Shown in pieces: positions 20,335 through 62,273 of a stretch of 64,000 nucleotides of DNA (positions are counted from its first letter, which is position 1; each line of letters begins with the position of its first letter). Position numbers and translations under genes: made by a program. The stretch is taken from positions 60,968 to 124,967 of the forward strand of contig CAMQVP010000001.1 of the NCBI GenBank assembly GCA_947038265.1, read 5' to 3'. This stretch comes from an uncultured Roseburia sp. GTDB lineage: Bacteria; Bacillota; Clostridia; Lachnospirales; Lachnospiraceae. The notes beneath the pieces are model-generated. The model was not told the DNA's origin, did no database searches, and saw only the letters and a list, made by a program, of their open reading frames with translations.

Positions 20335-20418
20335 ACGGACGCCCCCACAGCCCCCTTTGTAACTTTTCTTCTCTTTCATCATAAATTATATAGATAGAAA
20401 AAAAGGAGACTTTTCACT

Positions 20419-32700: not shown

Positions 32701-35700
32701 CCCCATAAATTTTCACCTCAGCCGCATTATTTCCCAAACTTCCTTCTATGACGATCTGAGAAGTAAATTTGTCAAATTCCTTTCCAATTAAATCCGCAGT
32801 AACCGTAGTCCCAGCCGGAATTGAAACTGATTTTAAGGTCTCATCTTTTTGGACAGAGGCATCCCAACTGCCTAATGTCAAATCGCTGAGATAACTGGTT
32901 GTCAAAGCTTTCTCAAACTTCTCATAAAGACAAAATTCTGCCGCCGTAATAAATTTATTTGCCCCGCCCTCTCCTGCGGTAGTCAGCGCGCGGATTCTAA
33001 TTCTTCTTGCATTTTTTGCGTCAAACTCCAAACTCTTTGTATTGGCATTATCCGCCCATGTAATGGACGGTAAAGTGATTTTTTTAAAATCCTCGCCGCT
33101 TTCCGTCTCGCTGTAATATAATTCACAAGAAAGAATCCTTCCGTTATTATTATTACCTTGCCTTGGAACATAATCCAATTTCCCAATGTCTATATTTTCA
33201 GGAAGCGTAATTGTATAATTCCCCGGAACATTAACCTGATCATATTTCGTATGCCAAATCGTCCCTAAATCTTTGTCAAGGGCTTTCTGCGCCCCTTCAT
33301 CTACGCTGTTTTGGCTGTCCGCCACGGCGCTTAACGCGCTTGAGTCTATTTTGTGATAACCATAAATTGTTTGCTCGTGCCCCAGGATACGGCCATAAAC
33401 CGCATCATACGCCGCCTTTTCCTCATCATCTAACAGCTCATATGCCTTTGCAAGCGCAATTTTTGCATTATGGAACTTGCTTTCAGAAGCCAAATCGTCC
33501 ATTGCCATATGCTCCAACAGATAATCGGAATAACTGTTCATCATGGACACAAACACGTCTTTTTGCTTTGCTTCATTCCAGCCTTGCTGCATAAGCCCTC
33601 TGTCTGTCATCACATAGGTCACAGTTTTTATCCCGCTGTTTCCTTCAATATAATACGCCGGAATATCTTTTTTAGTATACTGGCTTGTATAATACATTTT
33701 TCCAATTTCTTCATGATCCAGTTCTATTTTCGTTCCAACCGGAAAGTCAAAATCCTCATTATACGCATCCGCTTTATCTTTTCCAGTTAAAGTCCGGTCA
33801 AACACTTTCGTCCCAGACGAATTATACACACGGACTGCGACATACTTATTCTCAAAATATACATGCGGCTCTACATTATTGATTCTGACGTTAATCTTAT
33901 TTTCCCCTGTTTTTTGCGAAACAACGATAATTTCGCCGCCCATGCCCGTCATACGGATCTGCATATCGTCCGCCAGCAGGTTGCCTGTTACTTTTTTATA
34001 TTCCAAATCCTTCGTAACGGCTCCTTTTGCCGCTACCAGATACTCATTGCCATACTGATAGTTTTTTTCCCGTGGCATTGGAAGCTCTACTTCATAAATG
34101 CCCACTGGGAGAGTCGCCGTAATCTGGGCGTTTTCAACCGGAAGCCGCTTAACAATCTTTGACCCGTTTTTGATAACGACATATTTTCCCTGGATCTTTT
34201 CTAAGTCATCAATCGACACATTCAACGTAACATTGCTTGTGTCATTCCGTTGAAGCTCCGCCAAATCGTCTGTGCTGACAAGGCTGTAAATGCCGTTCAT
34301 TACCTTGCCTTTTTCTGCAAGCGCCTGACGGACTGTTTCCGCTTCTTCATCGTTTGTATAGAGATTTCTCAGATAATAAAGCATCGGCAAATCCTGATCA
34401 TAAATTTTATCTTCTAAAACTTCCGATGCGTGGATATGCCATCCTTCAAAATAAGGGATTACATTATATCCGCCCGTCTGGCTGAAACTCTCTACGATCG
34501 CCTCTGAAGAAGACATATTGCTTCCATGCTCGTAATTATATTTACGGAAAGTCGTATGCATTGCCGCCGTCGTTTTTTCCGGTCCCAGACGGTCGAGCAT
34601 ATTGACAAACATAAACAGACTGTTCTTATACATTTTCCGTCCTGCAGTGATGTCATTAAATACAGGCACTGCATTACGCGTCTGCTCCGATTCCCTTCCG
34701 AGCGCATTATACGCTTCCAGTTTCGTACTTCCATACCCGCCTAAAAGCCATCCAAAATCCTTCTCCGGACGGTAAGTCGGTTCAAAATAATATCCCATAA
34801 TATTATTCGTCGTCTCTACAAAAGAGTTTTCCTGATTTGCAATCGCCCCTTCATACCCATGCCCGAACTCATGCAGGGAAGTCCAGTCTTTATACAAATA
34901 GGAGCCAAGATTATCCCCGTGGAACGCGCTGTGATCTCCGGAATAGTATGCAAGTCCTGCGCCATTTACGTTCGCTTTAATAAAGAATTTTGCCCGAACG
35001 TTTTGATTATAAGGCTTATCCGTATAAAAATCCAATCCGGAATACGCATCATACTGTTCTTCAAATGCCGCCGCCCAGTCTAACATCTCATCAATCGTAT
35101 GAAATTGGTAGACTGGATCGTTTTTCTTATCCGGATGATCTATAATCTCATACCTGTTCTTCCTTGGCGCCAAAAACGTAGCCGCCTGCCCTTCTATAAT
35201 CGCAAACGAATCTTCTGTTTTATCCCAATCAGAAAAGAACGCCGACTCATCATCTCCATACCGGTAATAAGGAATATCACGGTAAGCATCGTTCCATTCC
35301 ACCTCAACCACCGGCTGTACCGTCGTATTCTTTGGCGTATAAATAAACGGCACGCTGTCCACGCTCTTTTTCTTCTCATTTTCTATACACTGGTTTTTTA
35401 CCGTGATCCATTCCCCACCAGCAGGAATGCGGACAGAATCCTTCGGGTCAGACTCTTCCTCTCCCTTCACTTCAACCAGTTTTTCCGTAGTTGCATCAAT
35501 ATTCAAAAGCTTTAAATTCAATTCTTTCGTAAACTCTGTATGATTAACCAGACGGATTTTCATAGTTTCATTTTCCGGCAGCCAAAAACCCAGATTCTGC
35601 CTGTCATGGTTATATCCTCTGTTAAACCCGATATTCGTCAAATGGGACGCGTCCGGAAGCGTATACAAGATCCTCTTGATATTCTTTTTCTCCGTGTCCC

Positions 35701-36094: not shown

Positions 36095-36358
36095 AACAAA
36101 TAAGACCTCCTTCTGAAAATTGTTCACAAAATGTACAGTTATTCTCATTATAGAATCTTTCCTGCCATTTTACAACCACTTTTTTACATTATTTTTTCAA
36201 AAAAATATAAGCCAAACAGACAGAAAGCAGTCAGCGGATCACATCGAAAATGCAAACAAGCTGAAATCAATTTCATATAGTTTGCACAAAATTCTTATGC
36301 CAAATTTATCAAAAACGCCTATTTACAATCTAAAGAATACCATATATCCTATAAAAAT

Positions 36359-44515: not shown

Positions 44516-47164
44516 TTATTTGGCTTCGTACCAGTTTTTTCCGGTGTGCATGTCAATCTCTAAATCAACCGACAAATCTGCCGCGCCCTGCATTTCTTCC
44601 ATTAGAATCTGTTTGACTTGCGCAAGCTCATCTTCTCTTGCTTCGATTAACAGTTCATCATGCACCTGTAAAATCAATTTGGATTTCAGCCCGCTCTTTG
44701 CCAGACGGTCATGGACGCGTATCATTGCGATTTTAATAATGTCTGCCGCAGTTCCCTGAATCGGCGCATTCATTGCGACGCGTTCGCCAAACGAACGCTG
44801 CATAAAATTGCCGGACGCCAGCTCCGGCAGGGGCCTTCTTCTTCCAAACATCGTTAAGGAGTATCCGTTTTCTTTTGCCGATGCCACCAGCCCGTCCAGA
44901 AATGTTTTTATCTTCGGATACGATTCAAAATAACGTTCGATATATTCCGCGGCTTCTTTTTTGCTAATGCTTAAATCTTGGCTTAAGCCAAAAGAACTGA
45001 TCCCGTACACAATGCCAAAATTAACCGCTTTTGCGTTTCGCCGCTGTAAATCCGTCACTTCCTCAAACGGCGTATGGAATACCTGCGATGCAGTGATTCT
45101 ATGAATGTCCTCCGCCTGGCGGTAAGCCTGAATCAGCGTTTCATCTTCCGACATATGCGCCAGCACGCGCAGTTCAATCTGGGAATAATCCGCATCGACA
45201 AAGACACAGCCTTTGGCCGGAAGGAACACCTTTCGGATTGATCTGCCAAGTTCCATGCGGATCGGGATATTCTGTAAATTCGGGTCCGCGCTGCTGATCC
45301 TTCCCGTCGCCGTAATCGTCTGATGGAACACGCTGTGAATCCGCCCTGTTTCATCAATGAAGTTTGCCAATCCGTCCGCATATGTGGATTTTAGTTTCGT
45401 AAGCTGGCGGTATTCTAAAATATCCGCCACGATAGGATGCTCTGCGGCAAGTTTCTCCAAAACGTCCGCCGCCGTGGAATAGCCTGTTTTGGTTTTTTTG
45501 CCGTTTGGCATTTTTAACTTTTCAAATAATATCACGCCTAACTGTTTCGGTGAATTAATATTAAACGTCTCTCCCGCCTGCGCGCAAATGCTTTTCTCTA
45601 ACGCTTCTATCTTTCCAGACAAACTCCTCCCATATTCGGCAAGGGCGTCCCTGTCCGCCGCAATGCCTTCACGTTCCATGGAAGACAGCGTATAGACAAG
45701 CGGAAGCTCTATTTCTTCATATAATTTGAGCATATCCGTTTCTTTCAGCCGTTCGGTTAAACGTCCTCTTGCGTTCCACGCTGTATACGCCATATAGCAG
45801 GCAAATGTCAAAAATGCGTCTTGCTGTTCTTCCACAGCCGCTTTTAAGCTTGATTTCCCCAATAAATCTGCCTGCGATAACAGCATCAGGCCGCAGACGT
45901 CTTTTGCAATCTCTACATAGGTATACTCGCTTTGCAGTGGATTTAACAAATAGGCTGCAATCCCGCAATCAAACAAGCGCTTACGGATCGCGCCGTCCGC
46001 TTCGGGAAGCTCTAAAAATTTGATATGCGGCTTTAAATCCAAAAAAGACACGTCTGCCTGCATTGTGATTTCTTTTAGCTTCTCTTTTAAATACGCCTCC
46101 GTTAAAAAACCTCCGACCAAAAGAAACGCCGTCTTATCTTCCGTATAGCAAATGGAAGCCCCAAGAAACTCCCCGTCTTCCACAAAACACGCCATGCCAA
46201 GCGCCCCGTTTTCTTTTGCATTCGCCAGAAATTCTTCCGCCTGCGTAAAATCGCTGATTATTTGGAAATACGTTTCCATCTGGTTTTTCGGCGCGTCTAA
46301 ATCAAAGCGGCCCAGCATCTTTTTAAAATCGAGCTTCTTGCAAAGAAGATACGCTTCTTCCGTATAAAAATCTTTTACTATTGCATCTTCGAATGAAAAA
46401 TCAATCGGGACATTCACGTCAATCGTCGCAAGCGTTTTCGAAAGCTGCGCCATATCATAGTGGTTTTTTAAGTTTTCTTTAGCGCGGTTTGGCTTAATTT
46501 CATCTGCATGGGCATACGCATTTTCTATGCTGCCGTATGCGGCAATCAGATTCGTCGCCGTCTTTTCCCCGATTCCCGCCACGCCCGGAATATTGTCCGA
46601 CGCATCGCCCATCAGCGCCTTTACGTCTATAAATTCTGACGGCGTGACCTGATACCGTTCCTTCACGTCTTTGGCAAAATAGTCTTCAATTTCCGTCCCC
46701 GTTTTCTTCGTTTTCGGGATTCTGATTTTTACGCGGTCCGTGGCAAGCTGAAGCAAATCCCTGTCGCCGGATACGACAGACACAAAAAAACCCTCATTTT
46801 CTGCGCGTTTTGAAAGCGTCCCCAGCAAATCATCTGCTTCAAATCCTGCTAACTCTACGGTTTTTATGCCCATTGCCGCCAGCATTTCTTTCATCAGGGG
46901 CACCTGCTCTTTTAGTTCTTCCGCCATCGGCTTTCTTGTGCCTTTATATTCCGGATACATCGTATGGCGGAACGTCGGCTCATGCACGTCAAAAGCAACC
47001 GTCAAATACTCCGGCTGCTCCTCGTCTAATATTTTAAATAAAATATTTAAAAATCCAAACACTGCATTTGTATGGATTCCCTCGGAATTGGTCAAATCCC
47101 GCACTCCGAAAAACGCGCGGTTTAAAATACTGTGTCCGTCGATTAAAACTATTTTTTTACTCAT
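44516..47164 (-). CDS. polA: DNA polymerase I
   Basis: 882 aa. The 5'-3' exonuclease N-terminus MSKKIVLIDGHSILNRAFFG..., the polymerase motifs ...RRNAKAVNFGIVYGISSFGLS... and ...LQVHDELLIEA.... It lies immediately upstream of coaE, which is the conserved polA-coaE order. Confidence 0.95.
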   Translation of the reverse strand: MSKKIVLIDGHSILNRAFFGVRDLTNSEGIHTNAVFGFLNILFKILDEEQPEYLTVAFDVHEPTFRHTMYPEYKGTRKPMAEELKEQVPLMKEMLAAMGIKTVELAGFEADDLLGTLSKRAENEGFFVSVVSGDRDLLQLATDRVKIRIPKTKKTGTEIEDYFAKDVKERYQVTPSEFIDVKALMGDASDNIPGVAGIGEKTATNLIAAYGSIENAYAHADEIKPNRAKENLKNHYDMAQLSKTLATIDVNVPIDFSFEDAIVKDFYTEEAYLLCKKLDFKKMLGRFDLDAPKNQMETYFQIISDFTQAEEFLANAKENGALGMACFVEDGEFLGASICYTEDKTAFLLVGGFLTEAYLKEKLKEITMQADVSFLDLKPHIKFLELPEADGAIRKRLFDCGIAAYLLNPLQSEYTYVEIAKDVCGLMLLSQADLLGKSSLKAAVEEQQDAFLTFACYMAYTAWNARGRLTERLKETDMLKLYEEIELPLVYTLSSMEREGIAADRDALAEYGRSLSGKIEALEKSICAQAGETFNINSPKQLGVILFEKLKMPNGKKTKTGYSTAADVLEKLAAEHPIVADILEYRQLTKLKSTYADGLANFIDETGRIHSVFHQTITATGRISSADPNLQNIPIRMELGRSIRKVFLPAKGCVFVDADYSQIELRVLAHMSEDETLIQAYRQAEDIHRITASQVFHTPFEEVTDLQRRNAKAVNFGIVYGISSFGLSQDLSISKKEAAEYIERYFESYPKIKTFLDGLVASAKENGYSLTMFGRRRPLPELASGNFMQRSFGERVAMNAPIQGTAADIIKIAMIRVHDRLAKSGLKSKLILQVHDELLIEAREDELAQVKQILMEEMQGAADLSVDLEIDMHTGKNWYEAK

Positions 47165-48957
47165 ATTTTCCTCGTATATTCCTTTAACCAGTGAGTTTCT
47201 TCGGCTGTCAGATACGGTGAAAGCGTCTTATATACGGTTTCGTGGTATTGGTTCAACAGCATCTTTTCTTTTTCCGTCAGGCTTTCTGCATCTACCGCGT
47301 CTAAATCCACAGGCGCGTATGTGATCGTTTCAAAACATAAAAACTGGCCGTATTCATTTTTTTGGGCTTTTTTACAGAGAAGCTCATTTTCAATGCGGAT
47401 TCCATATTCGCCCGCCAAATATACGCCCGGCTCATCTGTTGTAATCATGCCCGCTTTTAACGCGAAATCTTCGTCTTTTCCCTGACGCTTTTTCCAACGG
47501 AACGCATTCGGCCCTTCGTGCACATTTAAAATATGCCCCACTCCATGCCCCGTTCCGCATTTATAGTCCAGACCCAATTCCCAAAGAGGCTCTCTAGCCA
47601 AAATATCCAGATTTTGTCCGGTGCATCCCTCTAAGAACTTTGCGTCCGCCAACGCTAAGTTTGCCCGCAGGACAGCGGTAAAATGCTGACGCATTTGATG
47701 TGTGATTTTTCCCAGAGCGATGGTTCTTGTGACGTCCGTCGTCCCTTCTAGGTAATGCCCGCCGGAATCCACCAAAAGAAAACCTTCCGGCTCTAAGACT
47801 GCGTTTTCATCTGGCGCCGCCTGATAGTGCATCATGGCGGCGTTCCCACGGTAAGCGCAGATAGTGGCAAAACTTGGCCCTAAATAGCTCGGCTGTTCCC
47901 TCCGCCTATCCTCCAGATATTCACCGGCGGAAAGTTCCGTCACCGGCTCCAAACCAATCTTTGTTTTCAGCCAATACATAAATTTCGTAAATGCCACACC
48001 GTCTTTGATGTGCGCCCAAACCGTATTGCGGATTTCCACCGGATTTTTCACTGCTTTTAACAATTCGGAGGGGTTTGGCTGTGTAAGCCTTTGGACGGAA
48101 GCTGACAGACCGGATACAATTCTGTCATTGAGCGTTTCCGGATCATAAAGAACGGATACGCCAGAAAGGCTGTCTGTATAAGCTTCTACTGCTTCATATG
48201 GTCTGGTTTCTATCTGGTTTTCTTTCAGGTACGCCCGCTGATCCTGTGTAATGACGTCTTCCTGCAAAAACCAAATGCAGGTCTCCAGTGATATGATAAG
48301 ATATGACATCACAACTGGAACATGCGCGATGTCGGCGCCACGGATATTTAATGTCCATGCTATGTCCGTTAAGGACGACAGGATATGCGTATCTACACCT
48401 GCGGATTTCATTTCTTTGCGGATCTCTGCTATCTTTTCCTTTACGCTTTTGCCGGAATAGGTTTCGTCTAATATGAAAAACGGGTTCGCGGCTGCAGGCG
48501 GGCGGTCTGCCCAAAATTGATCCAAAAGATCTTGTTTGGGATCTAAGATGGCGCCTGCTTGTTTTAGGATGCTACGGTAATCTTCTCCGTCTGCCGCATT
48601 TATAGTTCTGCCGTCATAGGCAAGCGTCTCGCCTTTTTTTATGGTTTTTTTGATAAATTCTTTGACTGTGGGAACATCATCTTCTCCTATGCGCATAAGC
48701 GTGACTGAACTTCCTTCGAGCTGTTTTTCCGCTTGCAGGAAGTATCTGCCGTCTGTCCAAAGGTATGCCTGCGTCTGCGTGATGACTGCTGTCGCATTGG
48801 AACCGGAAAATCCGGTCAAATGCCGGATTGCCTGAAAATGCTCCCCGATATATTCGGAACCGTGATAATCGGAGTTTGTCATAAGATAATAATTGATGTT
48901 TTGTTTTGCCATTTGCCCTCTGAGCGTTGTCAGGCGTTTCAGAGTGGAGTTACTCAT
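47161..48957 (-). CDS. aminopeptidase P family (M24B Xaa-Pro aminopeptidase)
   Basis: About 598 aa with a creatinase/prolidase N-terminal domain and the M24 core ...HGVGHILNVHEGP.... The likely start is the ATG at 48957, preceded by GAGGAAACAG. The first codon of the track ORF is TTG. Confidence 0.8.
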   Translation of the reverse strand: MSNSTLKRLTTLRGQMAKQNINYYLMTNSDYHGSEYIGEHFQAIRHLTGFSGSNATAVITQTQAYLWTDGRYFLQAEKQLEGSSVTLMRIGEDDVPTVKEFIKKTIKKGETLAYDGRTINAADGEDYRSILKQAGAILDPKQDLLDQFWADRPPAAANPFFILDETYSGKSVKEKIAEIRKEMKSAGVDTHILSSLTDIAWTLNIRGADIAHVPVVMSYLIISLETCIWFLQEDVITQDQRAYLKENQIETRPYEAVEAYTDSLSGVSVLYDPETLNDRIVSGLSASVQRLTQPNPSELLKAVKNPVEIRNTVWAHIKDGVAFTKFMYWLKTKIGLEPVTELSAGEYLEDRRREQPSYLGPSFATICAYRGNAAMMHYQAAPDENAVLEPEGFLLVDSGGHYLEGTTDVTRTIALGKITHQMRQHFTAVLRANLALADAKFLEGCTGQNLDILAREPLWELGLDYKCGTGHGVGHILNVHEGPNAFRWKKRQGKDEDFALKAGMITTDEPGVYLAGEYGIRIENELLCKKAQKNEYGQFLCFETITYAPVDLDAVDAESLTEKEKMLLNQYHETVYKTLSPYLTAEETHWLKEYTRKI

Positions 48958-49423
48958 TTTCTGTTTCCTCATAGTATTCAAAAAATCTGGTGTCCAACTC
49001 TGGATAGGAGCGCTTGAGTGAAATTGGCTTGCCGCTTCGGTTTAAAAAGCAGTGCTCGCTTGTCGCTAGGGTGCGGAGCTCTCCTGTTTTTTTGTCGGTC
49101 ATACGGTATTCTACTTTCATTTTTATTCCGTTATATTCGGAGATTTTCGTTTCGATTATAACGGTATCGTCAAAATGAACCATGCTTTTATATTCACAGG
49201 CTATGGACAGTACGGGGCTGATGATTTCCATCTTTTCCATGCCTTTATAGGATAGGCCGATCTGCTCCATGAGATCCATGCGGGCTTCTTCCATCCAACG
49301 GATATAGTTGGAGTGGTGGATTATGCCCATTTGATCAGTCTCGTAGTATTTTGCATGATGTTCGTATGGTTTGATATGGATTTGGCCTGCTTGTCCATAT
49401 AACTGTAATTCTCTTCCTGCCAT
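48950..49423 (-). CDS. hotdog-fold acyl-CoA thioesterase (YbgC/4HBT-like)
   Basis: 157 aa, ...YYETDQMGIIHHSNYIRWMEEAR.... Confidence 0.65.
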   Translation of the reverse strand: MAGRELQLYGQAGQIHIKPYEHHAKYYETDQMGIIHHSNYIRWMEEARMDLMEQIGLSYKGMEKMEIISPVLSIACEYKSMVHFDDTVIIETKISEYNGIKMKVEYRMTDKKTGELRTLATSEHCFLNRSGKPISLKRSYPELDTRFFEYYEETENE

Positions 49424-49519
49424 AAGTCATTCCTCCTTTTGCAAGTGGGGCTTAATAGTATTATTATGTCACAGAGGGCGGGGAATTTCAAGTTGGAAAT
49501 GATTTTAAAAATGTTGATT

Positions 49520-49549
49520 GGGGTGGGGTGAGGCAGTGAGGCAGTGAGG
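49520..49549 (+). repeat. tandem octamer repeats GAGGCAGT/GAGGCGGC leading into palindrome E3
   Basis: gggtggggtGAGGCAGTGAGGCAGTGAGGCGGcagacgc. Confidence 0.6.
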
Positions 49550-49677
49550 CGGCAGACGCAAAACTATAGTTCATTCAGACACGCTCTCGCTCTTAGAAGC
49601 CAGTAGCGGTTCTAAGTTCGAAAAAACCTCACTAAGAACCGACAGGCTTCTAACGGTCTTCATTGAACTATAGTTTT
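49550..49677. repeat. nested palindromic element E3 (24-bp perfect terminal inverted repeats flanking 80 bp)
   Basis: CGGCAGACGCAAAACTATAGTTCA at 49550-49573 and its exact reverse complement at 49654-49677. Inner imperfect repeats cttagaagcc / ggcttctaa and gttctaagt / actaagaac. Confidence 0.8.
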
Positions 49678-49739
49678 GCGTCTGCCGCGGAACGTCTTTG
49701 GGGATCAATATTTTTAAATTTGCTTGTTAGGGAGTGTGG

Positions 49740-50280
49740 GAAGTTGGACTTTTTTGATTTATTATGGGTTTGTTTCTGGGGGATTTTATATTATTTTTTG
49801 TTGTATCTTTTTGTTTGGGCTGTCTTTTTGACTTCGTAGATGTTTTAGTTATATTTTTTGTTTTTCTTTCTGTCTTTTTGATTCGGAGCAGATTCTTTTT
49901 GTTCATTTTTTTATTGTTGATTTTTGATTTATTTTTGTTATTTATTATTTGAGTTTTTTGTGTCTTGTTTTTTTATTTTATTTTCGTAGTTCGTTTTGTA
50001 GTTTGTTCTTATGATTTGTTTTTTGGTTTTTTTATCTTCTTGGGAGACGCATTGTTTCTGTTAAGTTGTTTAAGGTTTTCTTTCCAATTTATTTTTTGGA
50101 AGGAGGGGGAATGTTTCGTTTTGTTAGTTTATTATTTCCGATTTTTTTAATATTATGGATTAATATGTTGTGTATTCGTTTTTTATTTTCTAGAAATTTT
50201 GTGTGGGAGATTTTTAATGGATTTTTAGTTTTCTTTTTATTTATGAGTGATTAGTTTTATTTGCTGATTTTACTTTTAAT
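49740..50280 (+). other. cytosine-depleted T/G-rich low-complexity tract of about 540 bp
   Basis: By eye about 60% T, about 20% G and under 10% C on the plus strand. Only F/L/V-rich artefact ORFs are present (49764..49952, 49965..50150, 50066..50254). Confidence 0.7.
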
Positions 50281-50713
50281 TAATTCAATGAAGCATTTTC
50301 AATAATATACATTATATCCTGCCTTGACTTTTATGTATGTTAATTTCTTTTTTAACGAAAGCATGTCAAAAATGCGATTCTGTAGCTGTTTTATCTTTCT
50401 AATAGATATTGTCTGCTTTATTATATCTTTATTTAATATGATATAATCTGCCTTTTGTTTCAAAAACTATCGCGTCTTTTCATGATATAATAGTTCTATC
50501 TCTATATAGTGTATAGATCTATTTTAATAAATCTATTTGATGAATTATTGATTTTTTCTTAAATTCAAAATATTTGGCATTTTCTTTGGAAAAGCATTCC
50601 AAACAATATGAAAAGGTGAATGAAGTTTCTATGGACTTATGTTTTTCTATTTGAATTAAGAATGCTTTTTGATAATGTGTTAAAATTTCTATATTTTATT
50701 AAGGTGTGATTCA

Positions 50714-50722
50714 TGTTATAAT
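50714..50722 (+). promoter_or_regulatory. extended -10 element TGtTATAAT upstream of the amidase gene
   Basis: tcaTGtTATAATatcc, about 128 nt upstream of the ATG at 50850. Confidence 0.4.
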
Positions 50723-50849
50723 ATCCACGGAATGAATCCTAGGCTTTGTCTTATGGAGACACATAGATCTGGAAGTATGGGGGATTTTTTAGCGAATAAG
50801 ACTTTTTACTAAAATGTCAAATATTTTAAATTAAGAAAGAGGGCTGATT

Positions 50850-51959
50850 ATGAATTTAAAAAAACGAATATCTCTGTTTTCCATATTGCTGTTTCTTTTT
50901 ACTGTTGGTTTCTTGGGCTGTGGCAAAACTGATCCTGTGAAAAAAACGGTTCCGGAACGGGAGGAGGCAGAAGAAACTAGTTCAGGGCAAATGCTTCCTT
51001 CTGAATATGCTGACAGTGAAATGATTCAGGATAACGAGGAGATTCCTACAGAAACTGAACTTATTTTGGATGCAAATGCGGCGGAACCATTTCCGGAAGC
51101 GGCAGAAAACCCAGACAGTATTTCCACGACGGAAATTATTACAACGGATACTGTGAATATCCGCATTGCTCCGGATTTAAACGCTGACGTTGCCCAAAAA
51201 GCGGCGCGGCGGACTGTGTTAAATAAGGTTTCTGAAGCAGATGGCTGGACTAAAATTTTAATGGAGAATTTTTTTTATTATGTAAAAAGCGATTATGTAA
51301 AAGATATGCCTGCCGCGGGTGAACGCACAGGATTTCTTGTTGCAATCGATGCTGGACATCAGGCTAAGGGAAACAGTGAAACGGAACCCATCGGGCCTGG
51401 CGCATCTGAACAGAAAGCGAAAGTCGCTGGAGGCACAAGAGGCGTTTCAAGCGGGCTTGCCGAATATGAACTTACTCTGCAGGTTTCTCTGAAATTGCGG
51501 GACGAGCTTACGGCCCGCGGATATGAGGTGCTGATGATTCGGGAAAGCAATGATGTCAATATCAGCAATGCAGAACGCGCAGAAATTGCAAATCAGGCGG
51601 GGGCAGACGCGTTTTTGCGTATCCATGCAAATGGTTCGGAAAACAGCGGGGCAAACGGAGCTATGACAATCTGCCAGACGGCGGGCAATCCTTATAATGC
51701 CGCGCTTTACAGTGACAGCAGACGTCTGTCTTCTCATGTATTAGACGCTCTTTCCGCGGCAACGGGATGCCAAAAACAATCTGTTTGGGAAACGGACACT
51801 ATGACCGGGATTAACTGGTGCCAAACGCCGGTTACGATTGTCGAAATGGGCTTTATGACTAATCCCACGGAAGATTCTAATATGGCAAATCCCGATTACC
51901 AGTACAAAATTGCCCAAGGAATTGCAGACGGCGTGGACGCTTATTTTCAGGCAGAATAA
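50850..51959 (+). CDS. N-acetylmuramoyl-L-alanine amidase (Amidase_3) lipoprotein with SH3-like domain
   Basis: Lipobox LFLFTVGFLGCG, the SH3b-like segment ...TDTVNIRIAPDLNADV...DGWTKIL..., and the Amidase_3 segment ...LVAIDAGHQAKGN...LRIHANGS.... AAGAAAGAGGG lies upstream. Confidence 0.85.
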   Translation: MNLKKRISLFSILLFLFTVGFLGCGKTDPVKKTVPEREEAEETSSGQMLPSEYADSEMIQDNEEIPTETELILDANAAEPFPEAAENPDSISTTEIITTDTVNIRIAPDLNADVAQKAARRTVLNKVSEADGWTKILMENFFYYVKSDYVKDMPAAGERTGFLVAIDAGHQAKGNSETEPIGPGASEQKAKVAGGTRGVSSGLAEYELTLQVSLKLRDELTARGYEVLMIRESNDVNISNAERAEIANQAGADAFLRIHANGSENSGANGAMTICQTAGNPYNAALYSDSRRLSSHVLDALSAATGCQKQSVWETDTMTGINWCQTPVTIVEMGFMTNPTEDSNMANPDYQYKIAQGIADGVDAYFQAE

Positions 51960-54888: not shown

Positions 54889-55182
54889 GGCTGTTCCCTC
54901 CTATGAATGGCATTATAGAGGATTTTTTGGCAAAAATCCTGACATTTGGATTACAGTTTTGTAAGGTTAGTTTTTACTATACTCTAAAATAATTTACTTT
55001 ACAAAAAATAAGATTGGGAACCTGTTTTTACATTCCCAGTCTGCCGTCCCATTTAGGCTGTTCATTTTGCATTCAATTTTTTCACTTCGTCAAGTGAAAG
55101 TCCTGCATACTCCTCAATTTTTTAAGCGTCAACATTCCATCTGCCAACATTCTTTTGGCAGTAGTTATTGCCCCCTCCTTTT

Positions 55183-58158
55183 TTACTTTGCAGCTCTTAA
55201 TATTTGATAAATTTCAGATGAAAAGATTCCTAATACTTCTTTTTTTATTTCTGGATTCTTCAAAAGCAAAGAGAAGAAGTCCTTATTTTGTTCTAATCCC
55301 TCTATCAATGCATCATCAATATCATCATAATAAGAAAATTCAAAATTTTCTTCGCTGTTATTCTTTGCGCTATTTTTCAGTTTCTCTGATTTCATAAGAA
55401 TATCTTTAATCTGGAGCATAGCTTTTACAGCTACATCGCTATCATAAAATCTTCCAGTCTTGTTGTTAATCTCAACAATAATTTCAGATAGTTTTTGAAT
55501 CTTATCCTCCGTAAGACCAAATGCCTCTGCTGTTGGTAATTTTAAAATAGGATCACTTGTAACTTTTTTTCCTTTAATTTCTTTTCCTTTTTTCTGTACA
55601 AAATCAGAAGCTTGAATTTTTCCATCAAGATTATATCCACCCCCAGAACGCTTAACATCTAAGTAAGCGTTCAGCCCTACAATAAAATGATATTTTTTAT
55701 GCAGCTCTGTATCCTCAAAACAAGATACTTGCAACAAAAATTCATAAAATCTTATGAAGCTTCGAACTAATTGCGCAAATTTAAGCTGATCTTCCAATGA
55801 CATCTTTTCAACATTCTTTTTACACTTCTTAAAATAAAAAGTCAGTTTTACAGTTTCTTTTGAATTTCTATCTTTCTTATTTTTACATAAAAGAATATTA
55901 GCAAGGTCGATGTCACTTGGATCTATTATTGCATAAGCATCTATCTTTGCTTCTAAGTCATAAATAGCTGTTGGCGTAATCGAGTTTGATAGCAAGGTTG
56001 TTGTGTAATATGGAGCAAATGCCTTTTTAATGTCTTCAAACTCATTCACAAAATCTAATATGAATGTCTTTTTATTATAAGGCGGATAGATCCTGTTTAA
56101 TCTGGAAAATGTCTGAACAGCGTTTACTCCTTTTAATTTTTTTAGCACATACATAGCAGCAAGTTTTGACTGATCAAATCCTGTTTGATATTTATTTGCA
56201 ACAAGAAGCACTTGATATTCATCTGTGTCAAATTTCTCAGGAAGTTTATTCTCTGCAAATCCATTCATACTGGCTTCTGTATACTCTGTTTCATCGTCTT
56301 TTAGCTTTACTTTACCAGAAAAAGCAACCAACGCATGAATACCTGTATAACCTTTTCTTTTCACATAATCTTCAAATGCCTGTCGATATTTTACTGCGCT
56401 TTCTCTGGAATCTGTAATTACCATAGCTTTTGCAGCGCCTCCAAGCTCCATCATTACATTATTTTTAAAATGCTCCACAATAATTTCAACTCTTTGAGCA
56501 ATATTTGTTTCGTGCAGTTTTACAAAACGGGCAATCTGCTTTTTAGCTTCATTTGTTTTTACTGAAGGATCTTCAGCAATCTCTTTATTGATTTTGTAAA
56601 ATGTCTTATATGGCGTAAAGTTCTGTAAAACATCAAGAATAAATTCTTCTTCTATCGCCTGCTTCATGGAATAGATATGGAAAGCTTCTTTTTGACCTTT
56701 TATATTCAACTTTCCAAATAGCTCAAGCGTTGTCGGTTTAGGTGTTGCTGTAAAAGCAAACATAGAAACATTGGGTCTTTTACCTGATTTCTTTACCTGC
56801 GCCACAATCACATCTTCCATATCTGCATTATCTGATTCATCAGAGCCTAGAGCCTGCCTAATGGCTTCCATATCTTTTCCCGCCGTCGAGGAATGCGCTT
56901 CATCTATAATTACTGCAAAACGCTTTTTCTCCAGTCCGGATACGCTCTCAATGATATAAGGGAATTTTTGTATTGTGGTTGCAATTATCTTAGTATTTCC
57001 AGTCAGAGCCTTTGCCAAATCTGTAGAATTGCATTTTTCATTCATTACACGAATCATTCCACTTTTATGCTCCAATCCTACAATAGCGGCTTGAAGCTGT
57101 CTGTCTACAACAACCCTATCTGTTACAACAACAATATTATCAAAAATAATTTTGTCATCTTCATCATGTAAAGAAACTAATCTATGAGCAAGCCATGCAA
57201 TAGAATTTGTTTTTCCAGACCCAGCCGAGTGTTGTATTAAATAATTCTGTGATGTACGATTAACAGTAAGATCTGATAAGACTTGCCTTATTACATCAAG
57301 CTGATGGTATCTTGGAAAAATCACATTTTCACTTCTGCTAATTTTCCCTGTTTCTTCATCTTTTTTCTCTATCTGCTCAATAAACATGAAATTAGTAATA
57401 AGCTGTATCACTGTTTCTTTCTTTAGAATATCTTCCCACATATAAGATACACTGTATTTATCTTCATAAATAGGATTTCCTTTTCCTGCATATACCCCTT
57501 CTCCATTGCCCATGTTAAATGGCAAAAAATATGTAGAACCGCCAGAAAGACGTGTTGCCATATACACTTCTTCTAAGTCCATAGCAAAATTTACAAGACA
57601 TCCTGCTTTAAAAAGGAATAACCTTGTTTTTGGATTTCGTTCAGTTCTATATTGATAAATTGCATCTTGATAACTTTGTCCTGCCGGATTGCATTTTAGT
57701 TCAAATGACATAATAGCAAGACCATTTAAAAAGATTACCAAATCAATTCTTTCTTTATCGCTTGCCCACACTTCTTCCATAACAGAAAAGATATTTTGAT
57801 TATACTTTTTGTTCAAAGCAGTATTATAAGAAGTTGAAGGTTTTCCATATAAAAAAACAAGTTTTTTTCCTGATATTTCAATTCCATGCTTTAACACATT
57901 AAGAAGACTTCCTCTATCTTTTGTTGTTTCTGTATTGATAAAATTTACAATCGTTTCTTCTAAATTTGCTTTATATATTTTACGCAAATACTCCATTTCG
58001 TCTGGCTGTGTCTCATTCAAGAACTGGAATAATAATTCTTTATCCATAGCAAAGCGCCTTTCAAAACTCTTTGTATCACGAATCATATAACCATTCTTAT
58101 TTTTTAGTTCATTCATTATATAATGCTGATATTCTTTTTCAGATAATATGTTATTCAC
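55183..58158 (-). CDS. hsdR: type I restriction enzyme R subunit
   Basis: 991 aa, with helicase motifs ...LIQHSAGSGKT... (motif I), ...VIIDEAHSS... (DEAH) and ...TGFD.... Confidence 0.9.
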   Translation of the reverse strand: MNNILSEKEYQHYIMNELKNKNGYMIRDTKSFERRFAMDKELLFQFLNETQPDEMEYLRKIYKANLEETIVNFINTETTKDRGSLLNVLKHGIEISGKKLVFLYGKPSTSYNTALNKKYNQNIFSVMEEVWASDKERIDLVIFLNGLAIMSFELKCNPAGQSYQDAIYQYRTERNPKTRLFLFKAGCLVNFAMDLEEVYMATRLSGGSTYFLPFNMGNGEGVYAGKGNPIYEDKYSVSYMWEDILKKETVIQLITNFMFIEQIEKKDEETGKISRSENVIFPRYHQLDVIRQVLSDLTVNRTSQNYLIQHSAGSGKTNSIAWLAHRLVSLHDEDDKIIFDNIVVVTDRVVVDRQLQAAIVGLEHKSGMIRVMNEKCNSTDLAKALTGNTKIIATTIQKFPYIIESVSGLEKKRFAVIIDEAHSSTAGKDMEAIRQALGSDESDNADMEDVIVAQVKKSGKRPNVSMFAFTATPKPTTLELFGKLNIKGQKEAFHIYSMKQAIEEEFILDVLQNFTPYKTFYKINKEIAEDPSVKTNEAKKQIARFVKLHETNIAQRVEIIVEHFKNNVMMELGGAAKAMVITDSRESAVKYRQAFEDYVKRKGYTGIHALVAFSGKVKLKDDETEYTEASMNGFAENKLPEKFDTDEYQVLLVANKYQTGFDQSKLAAMYVLKKLKGVNAVQTFSRLNRIYPPYNKKTFILDFVNEFEDIKKAFAPYYTTTLLSNSITPTAIYDLEAKIDAYAIIDPSDIDLANILLCKNKKDRNSKETVKLTFYFKKCKKNVEKMSLEDQLKFAQLVRSFIRFYEFLLQVSCFEDTELHKKYHFIVGLNAYLDVKRSGGGYNLDGKIQASDFVQKKGKEIKGKKVTSDPILKLPTAEAFGLTEDKIQKLSEIIVEINNKTGRFYDSDVAVKAMLQIKDILMKSEKLKNSAKNNSEENFEFSYYDDIDDALIEGLEQNKDFFSLLLKNPEIKKEVLGIFSSEIYQILRAAK

Positions 58159-58384
58159 CGTTTCGTTCCTCTCCTTTTGTAAATCAACACGACATACGAT
58201 TATATATTATTTTAATGACATTTTTTCAATAACGCTTATAACAGCATATTTCCATTCATAATTAAATACACATTATCCACTAATTATAAACCACATAAAG
58301 TGATACTCTAATCATCTTTTCGTGGTACACAGTCTATAGCGTATTAATTTATTATTTTCAATGTTTTTTCAAAATCTTAATCAA

Positions 58385-58516
58385 TTATAAAACACATACA
58401 TTATCTTCTTCTGTACTATATATAAAATTCCAATCACAATTCTGATAATTTTTATCACTATAAATTTTTTCAATCTGAGATTGTATGTAGTGAATTACAT
58501 TGAAATCTTTAGACAT
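58385..58516 (-). CDS. small ORF (43 aa) translationally coupled to hsdS
   Basis: The start AACAATGTCTAA overlaps the hsdS stop, and AAAAGGAGG lies 13 nt upstream. The product is MSKDFNVIHYIQSQIEKIYSDKNYQNCDWNFIYSTEEDNVCVL. It is not in the ORF track because it is shorter than 60 aa. Confidence 0.3.
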   Translation of the reverse strand: MSKDFNVIHYIQSQIEKIYSDKNYQNCDWNFIYSTEEDNVCVL

Positions 58517-59786
58517 TGTTTTTTGGAACCTCCTTTTTCCCTGTCACATATTCGTAAATAAAAGATTTTTTATATTGTTCAAGAACTTCTAATTGTTTCT
58601 TTTTATCTTCAATAACAGCATCTATTTCCAAACACTTCTGATCAAGATATTTCACGATTTCTTTTTGTATGTTCCGAATAGGAAATACCACCTTTATTTC
58701 ACCTAATTCTTCTTTGTTTATTTTGGGCATTTTAACTCTGTCTTCTGTCACTAATGCAACTTGGTTTAAAAAATACTGAGATAACATCATGTATAAAATA
58801 AATCTCGTATATTCTTGAGTTTCTATGGGATACATGTCTGCACTACATAGTCCGTCAAAAGGCGCTATTGTTACTTTGTTTAACTTGGGACGAATCTTGG
58901 AATATAATATCTGCCCTTTATAAAACAAATGATTATCGCTAATCACTCCAGCCTCGGCAACTGTATTATATCCTAATAAGACACCTGAATCTTTCGCTAT
59001 ATTATCAGGTGATATTTGTGGATACTCTTGGTATAAATTCACATTCACCAAATTTGATTTTATAATTCCAACATATTTAAATCGAGTTATTTTCCAATCT
59101 TTTGGCACCTTCCCAATACCTCCAATTCCACTATCTTTCATTTCCACATTAAGATGTAATCCTTTTGTTACTGCTTCTGTAATAATAGACTTTTTATAAT
59201 CTTCTAATATATCAATCTGAGATTGAATATCTGATACGAGTGAATCAGTTTCATTGCATTTTATATCAAGATAATTTGCAATTTTTTTCTGCTCATAAAT
59301 TGATGGTAAAGAAATTTTACGTTTAAATATGTCATCAGCAGAAACTCTCAAACGAATTTCCAGAATACCATTTGCATATTTTCTTAATTCCGTTTGAAGC
59401 TCTCTTGTATTAAAAATATAGTTGATAAAACGCAACTCTACATTATCTGTTTCTTTAAAAACATAATAAACAGGGCTAACGCATCCGAAGTAATTCGAAA
59501 TTCCTACAGAACCTATTAGTATATTCATGCTATTCACAATAAGAGTGTTAGGATATGCCAGTTTATAATCAGTAATATTTTCTTTTGCCTTATTTCCAAT
59601 ATTCCCTTTGTCTTCATAAAGCATAACACCTTTATCTTTCACAAGTGATAACACTTGTGATGTCTGTATTGGTAAATTTTTTTCTTTTATTTCTAAAAGA
59701 CAATACTGAATCCTATTAAGCTTCCAATCTGAAGGTATTTCCCCAATCCACTGAATCCCACTATCTTTCATTTCCCTAGCCATCAT
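58509..59786 (-). CDS. hsdS: type I R-M specificity subunit with two target-recognition domains
   Basis: The two halves each begin EMKDSGIQWIGEIPSDWK / EMKDSGIGGIGKVPKDWK, and conserved coiled-coil spacers are present (...LEDYKKSIITEAVTKG... and ...LEQYKKSFIYEYVTGK...). Confidence 0.9.
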   Translation of the reverse strand: MMAREMKDSGIQWIGEIPSDWKLNRIQYCLLEIKEKNLPIQTSQVLSLVKDKGVMLYEDKGNIGNKAKENITDYKLAYPNTLIVNSMNILIGSVGISNYFGCVSPVYYVFKETDNVELRFINYIFNTRELQTELRKYANGILEIRLRVSADDIFKRKISLPSIYEQKKIANYLDIKCNETDSLVSDIQSQIDILEDYKKSIITEAVTKGLHLNVEMKDSGIGGIGKVPKDWKITRFKYVGIIKSNLVNVNLYQEYPQISPDNIAKDSGVLLGYNTVAEAGVISDNHLFYKGQILYSKIRPKLNKVTIAPFDGLCSADMYPIETQEYTRFILYMMLSQYFLNQVALVTEDRVKMPKINKEELGEIKVVFPIRNIQKEIVKYLDQKCLEIDAVIEDKKKQLEVLEQYKKSFIYEYVTGKKEVPKNNV

Positions 59787-61873
59787 CAGTCCTCCTTAAA
59801 AAGCTTTGCAATTCTTTTATTTACAGACTTTTCAAGTTCAAAAAACTTTTGTTCCAAAACTTTACTGCTCTCTGGCTGCTGATATTTATAAAAATATCTA
59901 GTAAATGGAATCTCTGCGCCTGTTTTAATAACTGGATTTTTTGCTCCTAAATTTTCTTCAAAGAACCATTTTGCATCTGGAACATAGGGAAGAACTTCTC
60001 TTGCCATATAATCTTCTATGGATTCCTGATATTTAACAATCTCTGTATCTTTTGTAGTCTTATCATAAATAATATTGCCTTTTTTATCTCTTTGAATATC
60101 TGCTTTTTTATCCAAAACAGATAATCCATCGGCTATTCTTTCAAGGAGTTTTTTATTAGCAAATCCTTCTAAAATCTCTGTAAGTACAGGCATAAAAGAT
60201 TCTGGATTCATATATATGCTATCTGAAATATTCTCCCTTAATGCTTGAATGATCGCATCATAAATAGGCTTCTTCTCATAATAAGTTTCCAGTTTCTTTT
60301 CCTCTTTACCCGTTAAAAATTCTGCATTTTCCAGCGCATATACTTTTGCTTCATCATAAAGAGAATTTAATACGCCAGAAGAAAGCATATTTTGCATTCT
60401 TTCTTCTGTAATGCCATAGCTTCTCTGCAATGGCTGCATCACAGAATATTCTCTATACATAAATTCTTCATTATCATAAATTTTACAAAGATCATTCTCT
60501 TTAAAGTCGGCATAAAGCCTTGTAATTTTCTCTCTATCTTCTGGTGATAATTCATTCTTTTTATTGCTAAGAGCTTTTCGTAATTTATGATAAATGTTTG
60601 AAGCATCTATCAACTGGATTTTTCCTTTTCTTTCTGCCCTTTTATTTTTTGATATTACCCAGATATATGTAGCAATTCCTGTGTTATAAAATAAATCTGT
60701 TGGAAGCGCAATAATCGCTTCTAGTAAATCGTTTTCTAATAGAAAGCGTCTAATCTGGCTTTCTCCCGATGACGTTCCTCCTGTAAATAATGGAGAACCA
60801 TTTTCAATAATTGCAGCGCGTCCACATTCATCATCAAGTTTATCAATGGCTGACTGGATAAATAACAACTGCATATCGCTTCCCGCAGGAAGTCCTACGC
60901 CCCATCTGCTATCTATTTTTATATGTTCAGCTCTTACAGCATCTTCAACTCCATCTGCGGAATCTTTTCCTGCCCATGGCGTTCCAAATGGGGGATTTTC
61001 CAAAACAAAACGCATTTTTATATCAGGGAAACAGTCCTTTTTCATTGTATCTTGGTATCTGACATTTTCTGCATTCTGTCCTTTGATGAGCATTTCCGCC
61101 AAACAAATCGCATAGCTTTCTGGATTTACTTCTTGAGAAAACATTCTAATGTCTGCTGTTGGATTAAACCTATGAATATAATTATAAGCAGTAGAAAGCA
61201 TACCGCCTGTTCCTGCGGCTTGATCTAAAATAGTAATTACTTTATTATCATCGAAGATGTCATCACAGCCTTCTGCCAAAATAATAGATACCATAGTCTT
61301 TATAATGTCTCTGCCTGTGTAGTGATCACCAGCTTCAGCATTTTCAGAAAATCTCCTAATCAAATCTTCAAAGATATATCCCATCTTCACATTATCAATC
61401 GTTTTTGGTGATAAATCTAATTCTGAAAAAGCTTTTACAACACTATAAAGTCTATCGTTTTCTTCCATCTTATCAATTTGTTTATCAAATTCTAAACTTC
61501 TTATAATATCCTGTACATTCGCAGAAAATCCTTTTATGTACTCTCTGAAATTTCCTGCAATATGATCTGGTTCATTAACAAGCTCTGCTAAATCGTACTT
61601 ACTTGTATTGTAAAAGTCATATCCTGATGTACGACAAAAAACTTGCGTCGGCAAATCTGGATCAATATCAAATCTTGCTAATACTTTTTCTTTTGTGTCT
61701 TCCAATGCGCACTCAAGTCTTCTGATGATAACCATTGGAATGATTACATCTTTATATTTATCACTTCTATATGGACCACGGAGCTTATTCGCAATACTCC
61801 AGATGAAATTTACTTCTGATGTCACATTGACTGGCTCATCATCCCACATAAGATCAATGGGTTTATCACTCAT
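59786..61873 (-). CDS. hsdM: type I R-M N6-adenine DNA methyltransferase subunit
   Basis: ...DQAAGTGGML... (AdoMet site) and ...VLENPPFG... (catalytic NPPF) are present. The chosen start, the ATG at 61873 (MSDKPIDL), has GGAG 10 nt upstream. The stop codon overlaps the hsdS ATG. Confidence 0.9.
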   Translation of the reverse strand: MSDKPIDLMWDDEPVNVTSEVNFIWSIANKLRGPYRSDKYKDVIIPMVIIRRLECALEDTKEKVLARFDIDPDLPTQVFCRTSGYDFYNTSKYDLAELVNEPDHIAGNFREYIKGFSANVQDIIRSLEFDKQIDKMEENDRLYSVVKAFSELDLSPKTIDNVKMGYIFEDLIRRFSENAEAGDHYTGRDIIKTMVSIILAEGCDDIFDDNKVITILDQAAGTGGMLSTAYNYIHRFNPTADIRMFSQEVNPESYAICLAEMLIKGQNAENVRYQDTMKKDCFPDIKMRFVLENPPFGTPWAGKDSADGVEDAVRAEHIKIDSRWGVGLPAGSDMQLLFIQSAIDKLDDECGRAAIIENGSPLFTGGTSSGESQIRRFLLENDLLEAIIALPTDLFYNTGIATYIWVISKNKRAERKGKIQLIDASNIYHKLRKALSNKKNELSPEDREKITRLYADFKENDLCKIYDNEEFMYREYSVMQPLQRSYGITEERMQNMLSSGVLNSLYDEAKVYALENAEFLTGKEEKKLETYYEKKPIYDAIIQALRENISDSIYMNPESFMPVLTEILEGFANKKLLERIADGLSVLDKKADIQRDKKGNIIYDKTTKDTEIVKYQESIEDYMAREVLPYVPDAKWFFEENLGAKNPVIKTGAEIPFTRYFYKYQQPESSKVLEQKFFELEKSVNKRIAKLFKED

Positions 61874-62273
61874 ATTCTTTAGTCTCCTTTTATATGATTC
61901 TTTATAAATCTTTATTTCTGTAGATAAAAATACCCAAATGAAAGAAAAAATATAGCTTGCCAATGATAAAAACAAGCTCTTATGTCTTTAAAAAAATGGA
62001 TATAAAAATGAGCAAAAATAAAATCAATAATATCTTTGTCGTCAAGTTATTATCATAAACCTCCTAGTTTTATAAACCGAAAGCCCGAGCATTTCTGATC
62101 CCATACTAGCCCAAATTGCCATAAACTCATTTTTAATTTCCCACATAAATAATAAAGCATTTACAGTATAACACAAAAAGAGCTCAAACAAAATCTCCCT
62201 AAGCCAAAACAAAATAAAAAGCAGATAGAGAACACCCTCTATCCGCTTTCTTTTCTGCACACTAACCCCCGTC

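Follow-up and report, generated by a model that had tools for sequence, protein, structure and literature searches.

Does a long intergenic region with several unusual sequence features act as one regulatory module, or is it a mosaic of unconnected parts? The question is raised by positions 49424-50849 of a 64,000-nucleotide stretch of DNA (hereafter, the window; contig CAMQVP010000001.1) from an uncultured mouse-gut Lachnospiraceae species, where two divergent genes, for a minus-strand 4HBT thioesterase and a plus-strand Amidase_3 protein, are separated by a gap that holds, in order, a G-run with octamer repeats, a 140-nt palindrome, a 541-bp T/G-rich tract, and AT-rich DNA. A preliminary description of the window had proposed that this arrangement and a second one at 18.9-20.4 kb follow a shared cis-regulatory or structural logic. 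Our analysis favors a different reading, which we hold at a probability of roughly 0.6, namely that the region is a lineage-specific mosaic and not one regulatory module. According to this reading, the thioesterase operon and the amidase gene would ancestrally have been separated by a spacer of just 176 bp that contained their overlapping, back-to-back promoters, a state kept in a related species that we call L002 (L numbers are our handles for the loci and assemblies compared). In the window species, ~1.25 kb would now intervene between the -35 hexamer of the thioesterase promoter and the amidase gene. The palindrome would be the sole constrained piece of this inserted DNA, and the tract, together with the next 280 bp, would be unconstrained spacer whose length changes in both directions through slippage and duplication.

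The palindrome is conserved between lineages and the T/G tract is not

We collected ten complete versions of the intergenic region (1380-1532 bp); one of the strain samples is a mouse gut metagenome. L110 represents a diverged lineage, but at 90% identity its amidase still groups with the proteins of the species, in a cluster of 36 members. Two partial contigs, L082 and L083, apparently belong to the same lineage, and L082 shares its diagnostic sites, including a 102-nt insert. At four-fold degenerate sites, 46 of 507 positions (9.1%) differ between the window and L082. Set against these sites, the palindrome is strongly conserved between the lineages (Fisher p=1.6e-4), and the promoter region that precedes it is unchanged, whereas the tract and the distal AT-rich region diverged at least as much as the four-fold sites (Table 1). 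Sequences within the main lineage show the same pattern, with no segregating sites in 49424-49688, 17 in the tract, and 2 in the proximal 309 nt. The indels of the tract include the 102-nt insert of L110, which is itself T/G-rich, and a 12-nt tandem duplication in L114-116 of the main lineage. Since the coding DNA on both sides is 2-7% diverged between the lineages, recent recombination does not account for the conservation of the palindrome. Collectively, these data show that the palindrome and the proximal ~310 bp are constrained, whereas the T/G tract and the distal AT-rich DNA are unconstrained.

Table 1. Features of the gap and its flanking genes, with the changes found between the two lineages
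Feature	Coordinates	Strand	Substitutions	Indel events	Basis or remark
4HBT-type acyl-CoA thioesterase gene	48950..49423	-			Pfam; first gene of a thioesterase / M24 peptidase / polA block
Promoter region	49424..49491		0/68	none	
Overlapping divergent promoter-like sites	49439..49491	both			Consensus scan; lie in the unchanged promoter region
G-rich region and octamers	49492..49548		3/49	2	
G-run GGGGTGGGGT, then octamer GTGAGGCA x 2.9	49519..49550	+			Tandem Repeats Finder
Rod-like hairpin (palindrome)	49549..49688	+	1/140	none	Strand set by the orientation of the asymmetric bulge
Polymorphic apex deletion, 38 bp	49610..49647	.			Between TTCTAA direct repeats
T/G-rich, C-poor tract	49720..50260	+	60/528 (11.4%)	10	Non-coding, unconstrained, indel-prone spacer
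Distal AT-rich region	50261..50540	+	13.2%	3	Two TGATATAAT extended -10 motifs (50439-50447, 50483-50491); unconstrained
Proximal amidase control region (309 bp)	50541..50849	+	5.2%	2	Extended -10, ~120-nt 5' untranslated region, ribosome-binding site; conserved
N-acetylmuramoyl-L-alanine amidase gene	50850..51959	+			Pfam Amidase_3, E=3e-39

The inserted DNA is species specific

Homologues of the amidase form an own-species cluster that is at least 96% identical, after which identity drops to 74%. Of the species with polA, M24 peptidase, thioesterase, and amidase genes in this order, L002 is the closest, and its intergenic region measures just 176 bp. Homology between the window and L002 spans the 5' region and promoter of the thioesterase gene up to ~49491; beyond this point, there are only short, uncertain matches. 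In ~80 other Lachnospiraceae amidase loci, the upstream gaps are mostly shorter than 500 bp, and none is T-rich. Given the short gap of L002, the end of homology near 49491, and the lack of T-rich gaps elsewhere, ~1.25 kb of the region is specific to the window species.

The edges of part of this DNA might mark an insertion: a 213-bp segment (49492-49704) is flanked by TCAA, and from 49705 onward the window matches L002 again over 12 nt, although this is a short AT-rich match with E=0.02. Similarity searches gave no matches among plasmids and, among phages, a 32-nt chance match only. One metagenome contig, L102 (OFFR01004512.1), aligns to window positions 46072-50494 with 63-80% identity up to ~47800 and ~100% thereafter; it is apparently either an assembly chimera or a recombinant, with the breakpoint inside the M24 peptidase gene.

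The T/G tract has the properties of spacer DNA

The preliminary description had reported a C-depleted tract of ~540 bp with about 60% T, and this was confirmed: the tract is 541 bp long and consists of 58.6% T, 19.8% G, 15.5% A, and 6.1% C. Neither the rest of the 64-kb window nor the ~0.8 Mb of homologous loci that we compared from other species contains another 300-nt stretch with at least 50% T and at most 10% C. Because it changes at the neutral rate and has acquired many indels within the species, the tract is not a conserved cis-regulatory element, and a divergence at least at the level of four-fold sites without codon periodicity (period-3 signal of 1.04, versus 14 for the amidase gene) points to unconstrained spacer. 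Judged from its sequence, the tract is a low-complexity spacer free of constraint that changes by slippage and duplication.

It could be argued that the tract encodes small hydrophobic membrane peptides, as it contains an open reading frame (ORF) of 47 amino acids (50111-50254) with a hydrophobic product and a strong Shine-Dalgarno-like site (GGAAGGAGGGGGA), and genes were called in the tract in four assemblies (L001, L119, L120, and L121). We consider this extremely improbable, and the tract was rejected as protein-coding DNA. T-rich, A-poor DNA yields long hydrophobic ORFs by chance, the 3-nt periodicity expected of a gene is missing, and the ORFs of the tract had no match in Pfam. Moreover, in the other lineage, the Shine-Dalgarno-like site of the 47-amino-acid ORF reads GGAATGAAGG, the stop codon is lost, and the changes are mostly non-synonymous.

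A further possibility is that the tract works through its composition, either by loading Rho on the minus strand and thereby stopping leftward transcription ahead of the thioesterase promoter or as a curved or AT-rich insulator of the divergent promoters. Indeed, the minus strand is unstructured and G-poor over all 541 nt (C 19.8% versus G 6.1%), much like C>G regions of the rut (Rho utilization) type, and the composition is retained in the diverged lineage, including its 102-nt insert. The T-runs also show a weak helical phasing at 11.2 bp (p=0.02 within the 9.5-11.5 bp band) that recalls curved spacers. The phasing is not robust, however (p=0.62 over all periods), the retained composition is expected anyway at 11% divergence, and, in contrast to its models, the tract lacks sequence constraint. 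In addition, relatives have a 176-bp spacer in its place, and the consensus scan revealed no leftward promoters of note beyond weak consensus matches. We therefore judge a compositional role to be improbable.

The palindrome belongs to a family of rod-like hairpins

Within the palindrome, two inverted-repeat arms of 25 nt (49549-49573 and 49664-49688) are 100% complementary and enclose 90 nt with nested inner pairing. The perfect, nested repeat of the preliminary description was thus recovered, with arms and spacing slightly longer than the 24 bp and 80 bp given there. The arms form the closing stem, P1, which is followed by P2 (AGAC/GTCT), a 5' bulge (CGCTCTCGCT, 49582-49591), P3 (TTAGAAGCC/GGCTTCTAA), P4 (GGTTCTAAG/CTAAGAACC, with an A·A mismatch), and a 15-nt apex. 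The predicted stability of the hairpin is -73 to -80 kcal/mol, and its fold z-score relative to shuffled sequences is -7.5 on the plus strand and -10.1 on the minus strand. The arm sequence is single-copy in the 64-kb window (0 expected in shuffles), and a metagenome scan for the arms found them at the same locus alone, so that they are single-copy as far as is visible. A search of 49300-51000 against the Rfam models gave no match to the palindrome, at the gathering threshold or even at E<=10.

Related hairpins were found in other species. Perfect inverted repeats proved rare when all the loci compared were scanned for them, and two of the few that turned up lie upstream of amidase homologues (L013 and L069). 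L069 carries two inverted copies, folding into 146-160-nt hairpins (3807-3952 and 4064-4223) that lie 110 nt apart in a 1052-nt gap upstream of the amidase homologue. The interiors of these copies are nearly identical and align with the window palindrome, whereas their outer stems are unrelated. Downstream of both L069 copies come an ORF of 75 amino acids (4324-4551), preceded by a good ribosome-binding site, and then the gene for the amidase homologue. They had no Rfam match at E<=10, and blastn against plasmids and phages gave nothing. Another copy was found by nhmmer in L072 (E=7e-18), 3.4 kb from the amidase gene and between a 209-amino-acid gene on the minus strand and a 226-amino-acid ORF on the plus strand that we take to be SfsA-like from its N-terminal sequence. 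A weaker, probable copy occurs in L123 (118-273; 23.7 bits, E=6.4e-5 in a 3.7-kb locus, fold z -7.3).

To describe the family, we built a covariance model, R1, from the window species and its structure alone and let Infernal realign the other copies; a MAFFT alignment of all copies was not used for the model, as it misaligned P1 and P3 by one column. Searched against 885 kb, R1 detected the two L069 copies, at 70 and 57 bits, as well as the one in L072, at 50 bits, with E values of 4e-14 to 5e-9, and it gave no further match at E<=1. Helices P1-P4 are retained through compensatory changes although their sequences differ. P1 has wholly different sequences in the five copies and measures 25, 19, 26, 17 (plus two mismatches), and 8 bp, respectively; P2 reads AGAC/GTCT, AGACCC/GGGTCT, GGACCC/GGGTCC, or ACAGG/CCTGT; and P3 comprises 7-15 bp that differ in each species. 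The 5' bulge is CGCTCTCGCT except for one copy with CGCTCGCGCT, P4 follows GGTNCTAAR/YTAAGNNCC with the A·A mismatch at the same place in all copies, and the apex is variable. In the model alignment, 94.4% of cells are paired, compared with 34-45% in controls with slid partners. Both partners vary in 32 of the 46 pairs, and none of 500 shuffles reached the observed values. On the strength of these alignments, we consider the rod hairpins a new, previously uncatalogued, covariation-supported family of structured elements in mouse-gut Lachnospiraceae. The preliminary description had called for a search for further copies in related species; such copies exist for the rod (two in L069 and one in L072), whereas the T/G tract is absent from the relatives sampled.

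The L123 copy comes from the extreme end of a 43-kb viral contig (IMGVR_UViG_3300045988_033147), on which a partial core motif (42-75) stands in tandem with the probable rod. Approximately 1.3 kb from the rod is an ORF (1616-2770) that is presumably tyrosine integrase-like, judging by its sequence, and the rod could mark an integration site. This contig was the only one matched in a scan of viral contigs with a core motif of 20 specified bases, and a single match is near chance expectation. Scans of viral contigs with the palindrome arm and with a P4-based pattern found nothing.

These observations bear on the serious rival to our reading of the hairpin, according to which it is selfish or foldback palindromic DNA, akin to a miniature inverted-repeat transposable element (MITE), that has no host function and owes its conservation to its youth or to self-correction between the arms. 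The absence of the element from the orthologous L002 site fits this view, as do the possible 4-bp TCAA duplication around the 213-bp insert with the resumption of 12 nt of L002 sequence (E=0.02), the perfect complementarity of P1 without wobble pairs, the inverted pair in L069, and the possible copy beside an integrase-like ORF at the end of a viral contig. A dispersed MITE is, however, difficult to reconcile with the copy number, as the arms occur once in the 64-kb window and, in the metagenome scan, at this locus alone. Conserved terminal inverted repeats were likewise rejected, given that P1 differs between the two L069 copies as well as between species; a wholly divergent P1 around a conserved interior is the opposite of what transposase-bound termini would show. 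Furthermore, the palindrome changed at 1 of 140 positions over ~10% neutral divergence while its flanks diverged, and a transposase was not found nearby. Taken together, a DNA-level or selfish palindrome is in our estimation unlikely, but it deserves to be taken seriously.

Known intergenic palindromes offer a useful comparison. REP/BIME, ERIC, RUP, and Correia-type MITEs are imperfect intergenic palindromes whose presence varies among related species and that can be transcribed in neighboring mRNAs. The window element differs from them in being single-copy, in its divergent outer stems and conserved interior, and in having no conserved terminal repeats.

The hairpin also varies within the species. 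A 38-bp piece of its apex is missing from L001, L118, L119, L121, L094, and L102 and present in the window, L110, L114-116, and L120; the apex-deleted form still folds as a hairpin (-55 kcal/mol). Several short-read contigs stop inside the palindrome because the inverted repeat affects assembly. An odd palindrome arm in L082, at a contig end, was set aside as an assembly artefact, since it was not reproduced in the complete L110 assembly.

Just upstream, the tandem octamers announced in the preliminary description are present, as 2.9 copies of GTGAGGCA (49528-49550; Tandem Repeats Finder), which is a trivially short array. The octamer partly duplicates the sequence GNGGCAG with which the hairpin arm ends on its outer side. 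Strains differ in the number of units, with one fewer in L118 and a variant in L110. The array looks like a product of slippage.

Three further identities of the palindrome were examined and rejected. First, it is not an intrinsic terminator: a scan of 49300-51000 gave no terminator-like sites, and a U-run after the stem is lacking on both strands, the 3' flanks being GGAACGUCUUUGG (plus strand) and CUCACUGCC (minus strand). Second, it is not an invertible promoter, as all strain assemblies that span it share one orientation and differ just by the 38-bp apical deletion. Third, an ORF of 45 amino acids inside the palindrome (49571-49708, minus strand) resembled the Pfam family RrnaAD (rRNA adenine dimethylase) at a sub-threshold E value of 0.006 and is probably a chance match, with no support from PDB or NCBIfam.

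Predicted overlapping promoters and a putative transcript through the hairpin

The consensus scan predicted a promoter for the thioesterase operon, TTGAAA-17-TGaCATAAT (49491..49463), and one directed toward the amidase gene, TTGCAA-17-TATTAT (49439..49467). Both hexamer pairs recur at equal spacing in L002 (TTGAAT-17-TATTAT; L002 4849-4901), where the rightward promoter would serve the amidase gene. These back-to-back promoters, with coinciding -10 boxes, have kept their position in the two species despite differing surroundings (window 49439-49491; L002 4849-4901). This conserved arrangement suggests that transcription of the thioesterase operon and, in the ancestral state, divergent transcription of the amidase gene exclude each other.

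At the other end of the gap, the AT-rich stretch with an extended -10 element that had been noted before the amidase gene was confirmed, with TGTTATAAT read from the sequence at 50714-50722. The first of the two TGATATAAT motifs in the distal AT-rich region is disrupted in L110; the second is retained and resembles TCTTTTCTATGATATA of L002. An Rfam search of 49300-51000, with the amidase leader included, gave a chance-level match to RAGATH-30 (19 bits, E=1) as its sole result, and a tRNA gene was the sole RNA family found in 14 homologous loci. The downstream gene itself had been labeled an SH3-amidase; the amidase assignment stands, whereas its SH3 match is below threshold (SH3_3, E=0.002).

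Given this arrangement, we postulate that the hairpin acts as a folded single strand, most probably as RNA made from the conserved rightward promoter ~75 nt upstream, which is our best guess at its origin. The putative transcript would start near 49475 and reach the hairpin 75 nt later. It would there adopt the rod structure typical of the family, with a long closing stem of free sequence, three covarying inner helices, the CGCTCTCGCT bulge, and the conserved A·A mismatch. As RNA, the hairpin might serve as a stable RNA end, as an RNase III target by virtue of its 25-bp perfect stem, or as a barrier to read-through or transcription. Its high stability and RNase III-sized perfect duplex resemble features of terminators and RNase III stems, whereas, unlike terminators, it has no U-run and is located upstream of the thioesterase promoter instead of at a gene end. 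The amidase gene would be expressed from its own conserved proximal 310 bp (TGTTATAAT).

Several points weigh against the reading of the region as a mosaic with a functional hairpin. Just five copies, from four contigs, define the family, and the covariation count was made on a model-fitted alignment in which the window and L110 copies, being nearly palindromic, also appear as reverse-strand rows. G·U pairs are absent from the 70 bp of P1 in three copies, which would also fit a DNA-level palindrome, and the wobble pairs do not assign a strand, with one case favoring plus and two favoring minus. Moreover, about half of the strains are without the apex, so that part of the element is dispensable. 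As regards the tract, neutral evolution over ~10% divergence may be compatible with a role of composition only.

The 18.9-20.4 kb locus has a similar layout but unrelated sequence

The preliminary description had assigned the same architecture to the locus at 18.9-20.4 kb. The palindromes at that locus are TwoAYGGAY RNAs according to Rfam (18931-19098, minus strand, 131 bits; 20131-20296, plus strand, 121 bits; the gathering threshold of RF01731 is 43 bits). The two copies face outward as an inverted pair and are just 55% identical (spans 18886-19143 and 20091-20336). Between them lies ~1 kb of AT-rich non-coding DNA in which the skew flips near 19500, the left half being C-poor and the right half G-poor. 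This DNA also contains a ~50-nt direct repeat, read by eye (ttcattga...caaccatcacg.aaaccatattttt.tgctaacgac), at 19673-19722 and 19883-19932, 210 nt apart. The right-hand copy ends ~85-120 nt before a SpoIID/LysM/PG_binding gene at 20419.

TwoAYGGAY is an orphan motif of ~140-170 nt found intergenically in gut Clostridia (RF01731; Weinberg et al. 2010, PMC2864571). The stem that closes it can reach considerable length in many cases, with 24 bp cited in the supplement, and the motif was rated non-cis-regulatory (PMC2864571). The window hairpin shares with it the intergenic position and, in its 25-bp perfect P1, the long closing stem. It differs, however, in topology: TwoAYGGAY has two inner hairpins with AYGGAY loops, whereas the window element does not branch and forms a rod that is interrupted by internal loops, the CGCTCTCGCT bulge, and the A·A mismatch. 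A direct assignment of the window hairpin to RF01731 was rejected, as there is no match at E<=10 and no AYGGAY loop. The rod family is therefore related to TwoAYGGAY in kind but not in sequence or topology. To our knowledge, no function has been assigned to TwoAYGGAY since 2010.

As for the T-rich DNA, the 18.9-20.4 kb locus also has a G-run, and its positions 19150-19560 are rich in T (47%) and poor in C (9%) but do not reach the thresholds of T>=50% and C<=10%. When the two loci were compared, the T/G tract and the interior of the 18.9-20.4 kb locus showed no sequence similarity (z ~0, block shuffles), and their T-rich tracts are unrelated. Thus, the rough layout and composition of the earlier comparison hold, whereas homology does not: by their sequences, the two loci are alike in general layout and composition only.

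We can now weigh the proposal that palindrome and T/G tract form one cis-regulatory module, shared between the two loci and controlling cell wall hydrolases, for example in sporulation or cell separation. Both loci do precede genes acting on peptidoglycan, each pairs a large palindrome with a G-run and a C-poor T-rich stretch, and large hairpins also occur upstream of amidase homologues in L013 (TwoAYGGAY) and L069 (rods). Nevertheless, the palindromes come from different families, the tracts have no common sequence, and the T/G tract is missing from other species and neutral in its evolution. The rod copies also lack a consistent flank composition, and the one in L072 lies between unrelated genes. 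A G-poor leader before every large hairpin was considered as a common denominator and dropped, since it held for the three TwoAYGGAY copies but was inconsistent for the rods. We conclude that a shared module is quite improbable. With respect to a common logic, the idea fails for the T/G tract, which is lineage specific and neutral, and retains some force for the palindrome, which is constrained and has homologues upstream of the L069 amidase gene.

Other features of the window

Positions 55000-62000 of the window form a block of low G+C content (0.29-0.35, compared with ~0.44 elsewhere) with a gene for a type I restriction R subunit (55183-58158) at its start. This block was probably acquired horizontally as an island. 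A large indel sets the diverged lineage apart at ~54900-55200. Elsewhere in the window, a single ORF of 3130 amino acids occupies 26756-36148 on the minus strand.

Association with cell wall hydrolase genes

In ~0.8 Mb around the amidase homologues of other species, there are three independent occurrences of large hairpins (L013, L069, and L072), and two of the three are in the gap upstream of the amidase gene. The L013 hairpin, from another uncultured Lachnospiraceae species, was the sole find of a TwoAYGGAY model (R2) over all amidase loci; it lies at 252-418 (122 bits), ends 78 nt before the start codon of the amidase homologue, and is very similar to window positions 20131-20296. The enrichment in amidase gaps corresponds to p ~0.03, a rough post hoc estimate that assumes approximately nine intergenic regions per locus and is based on very few cases. 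The recurrence of large hairpins upstream of cell wall hydrolase genes is therefore suggestive, with two of three cases being too few for a rule. As TwoAYGGAY was rated non-cis-regulatory by Weinberg et al., we regard the association as a lead rather than an established result. In addition, all four hairpins upstream of hydrolase genes (the window rod, copy 1 of L069, the TwoAYGGAY of L013, and the right-hand TwoAYGGAY of the window) are co-oriented with the gene.

We can speculate that rods and TwoAYGGAY are interchangeable 5'-leader modules of Lachnospiraceae peptidoglycan hydrolase genes, that is, cis-acting RNAs, possibly protein-bound or RNase III-processed, that couple expression to the state of the cell wall, although we would call this doubtful at best.

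For the reading of this locus, it follows that its most eye-catching feature, 541 bp with 59% T, is lineage specific and neutral and is not to be read as regulatory logic. The hairpins, on the other hand, have a setting in common that would allow rod and TwoAYGGAY elements to be studied jointly, namely upstream of amidase and SpoIID/LysM genes. Should the rod prove functional, the few large, structured orphan motifs of gut Clostridia would be joined by a further family, one that is supported by covariation.

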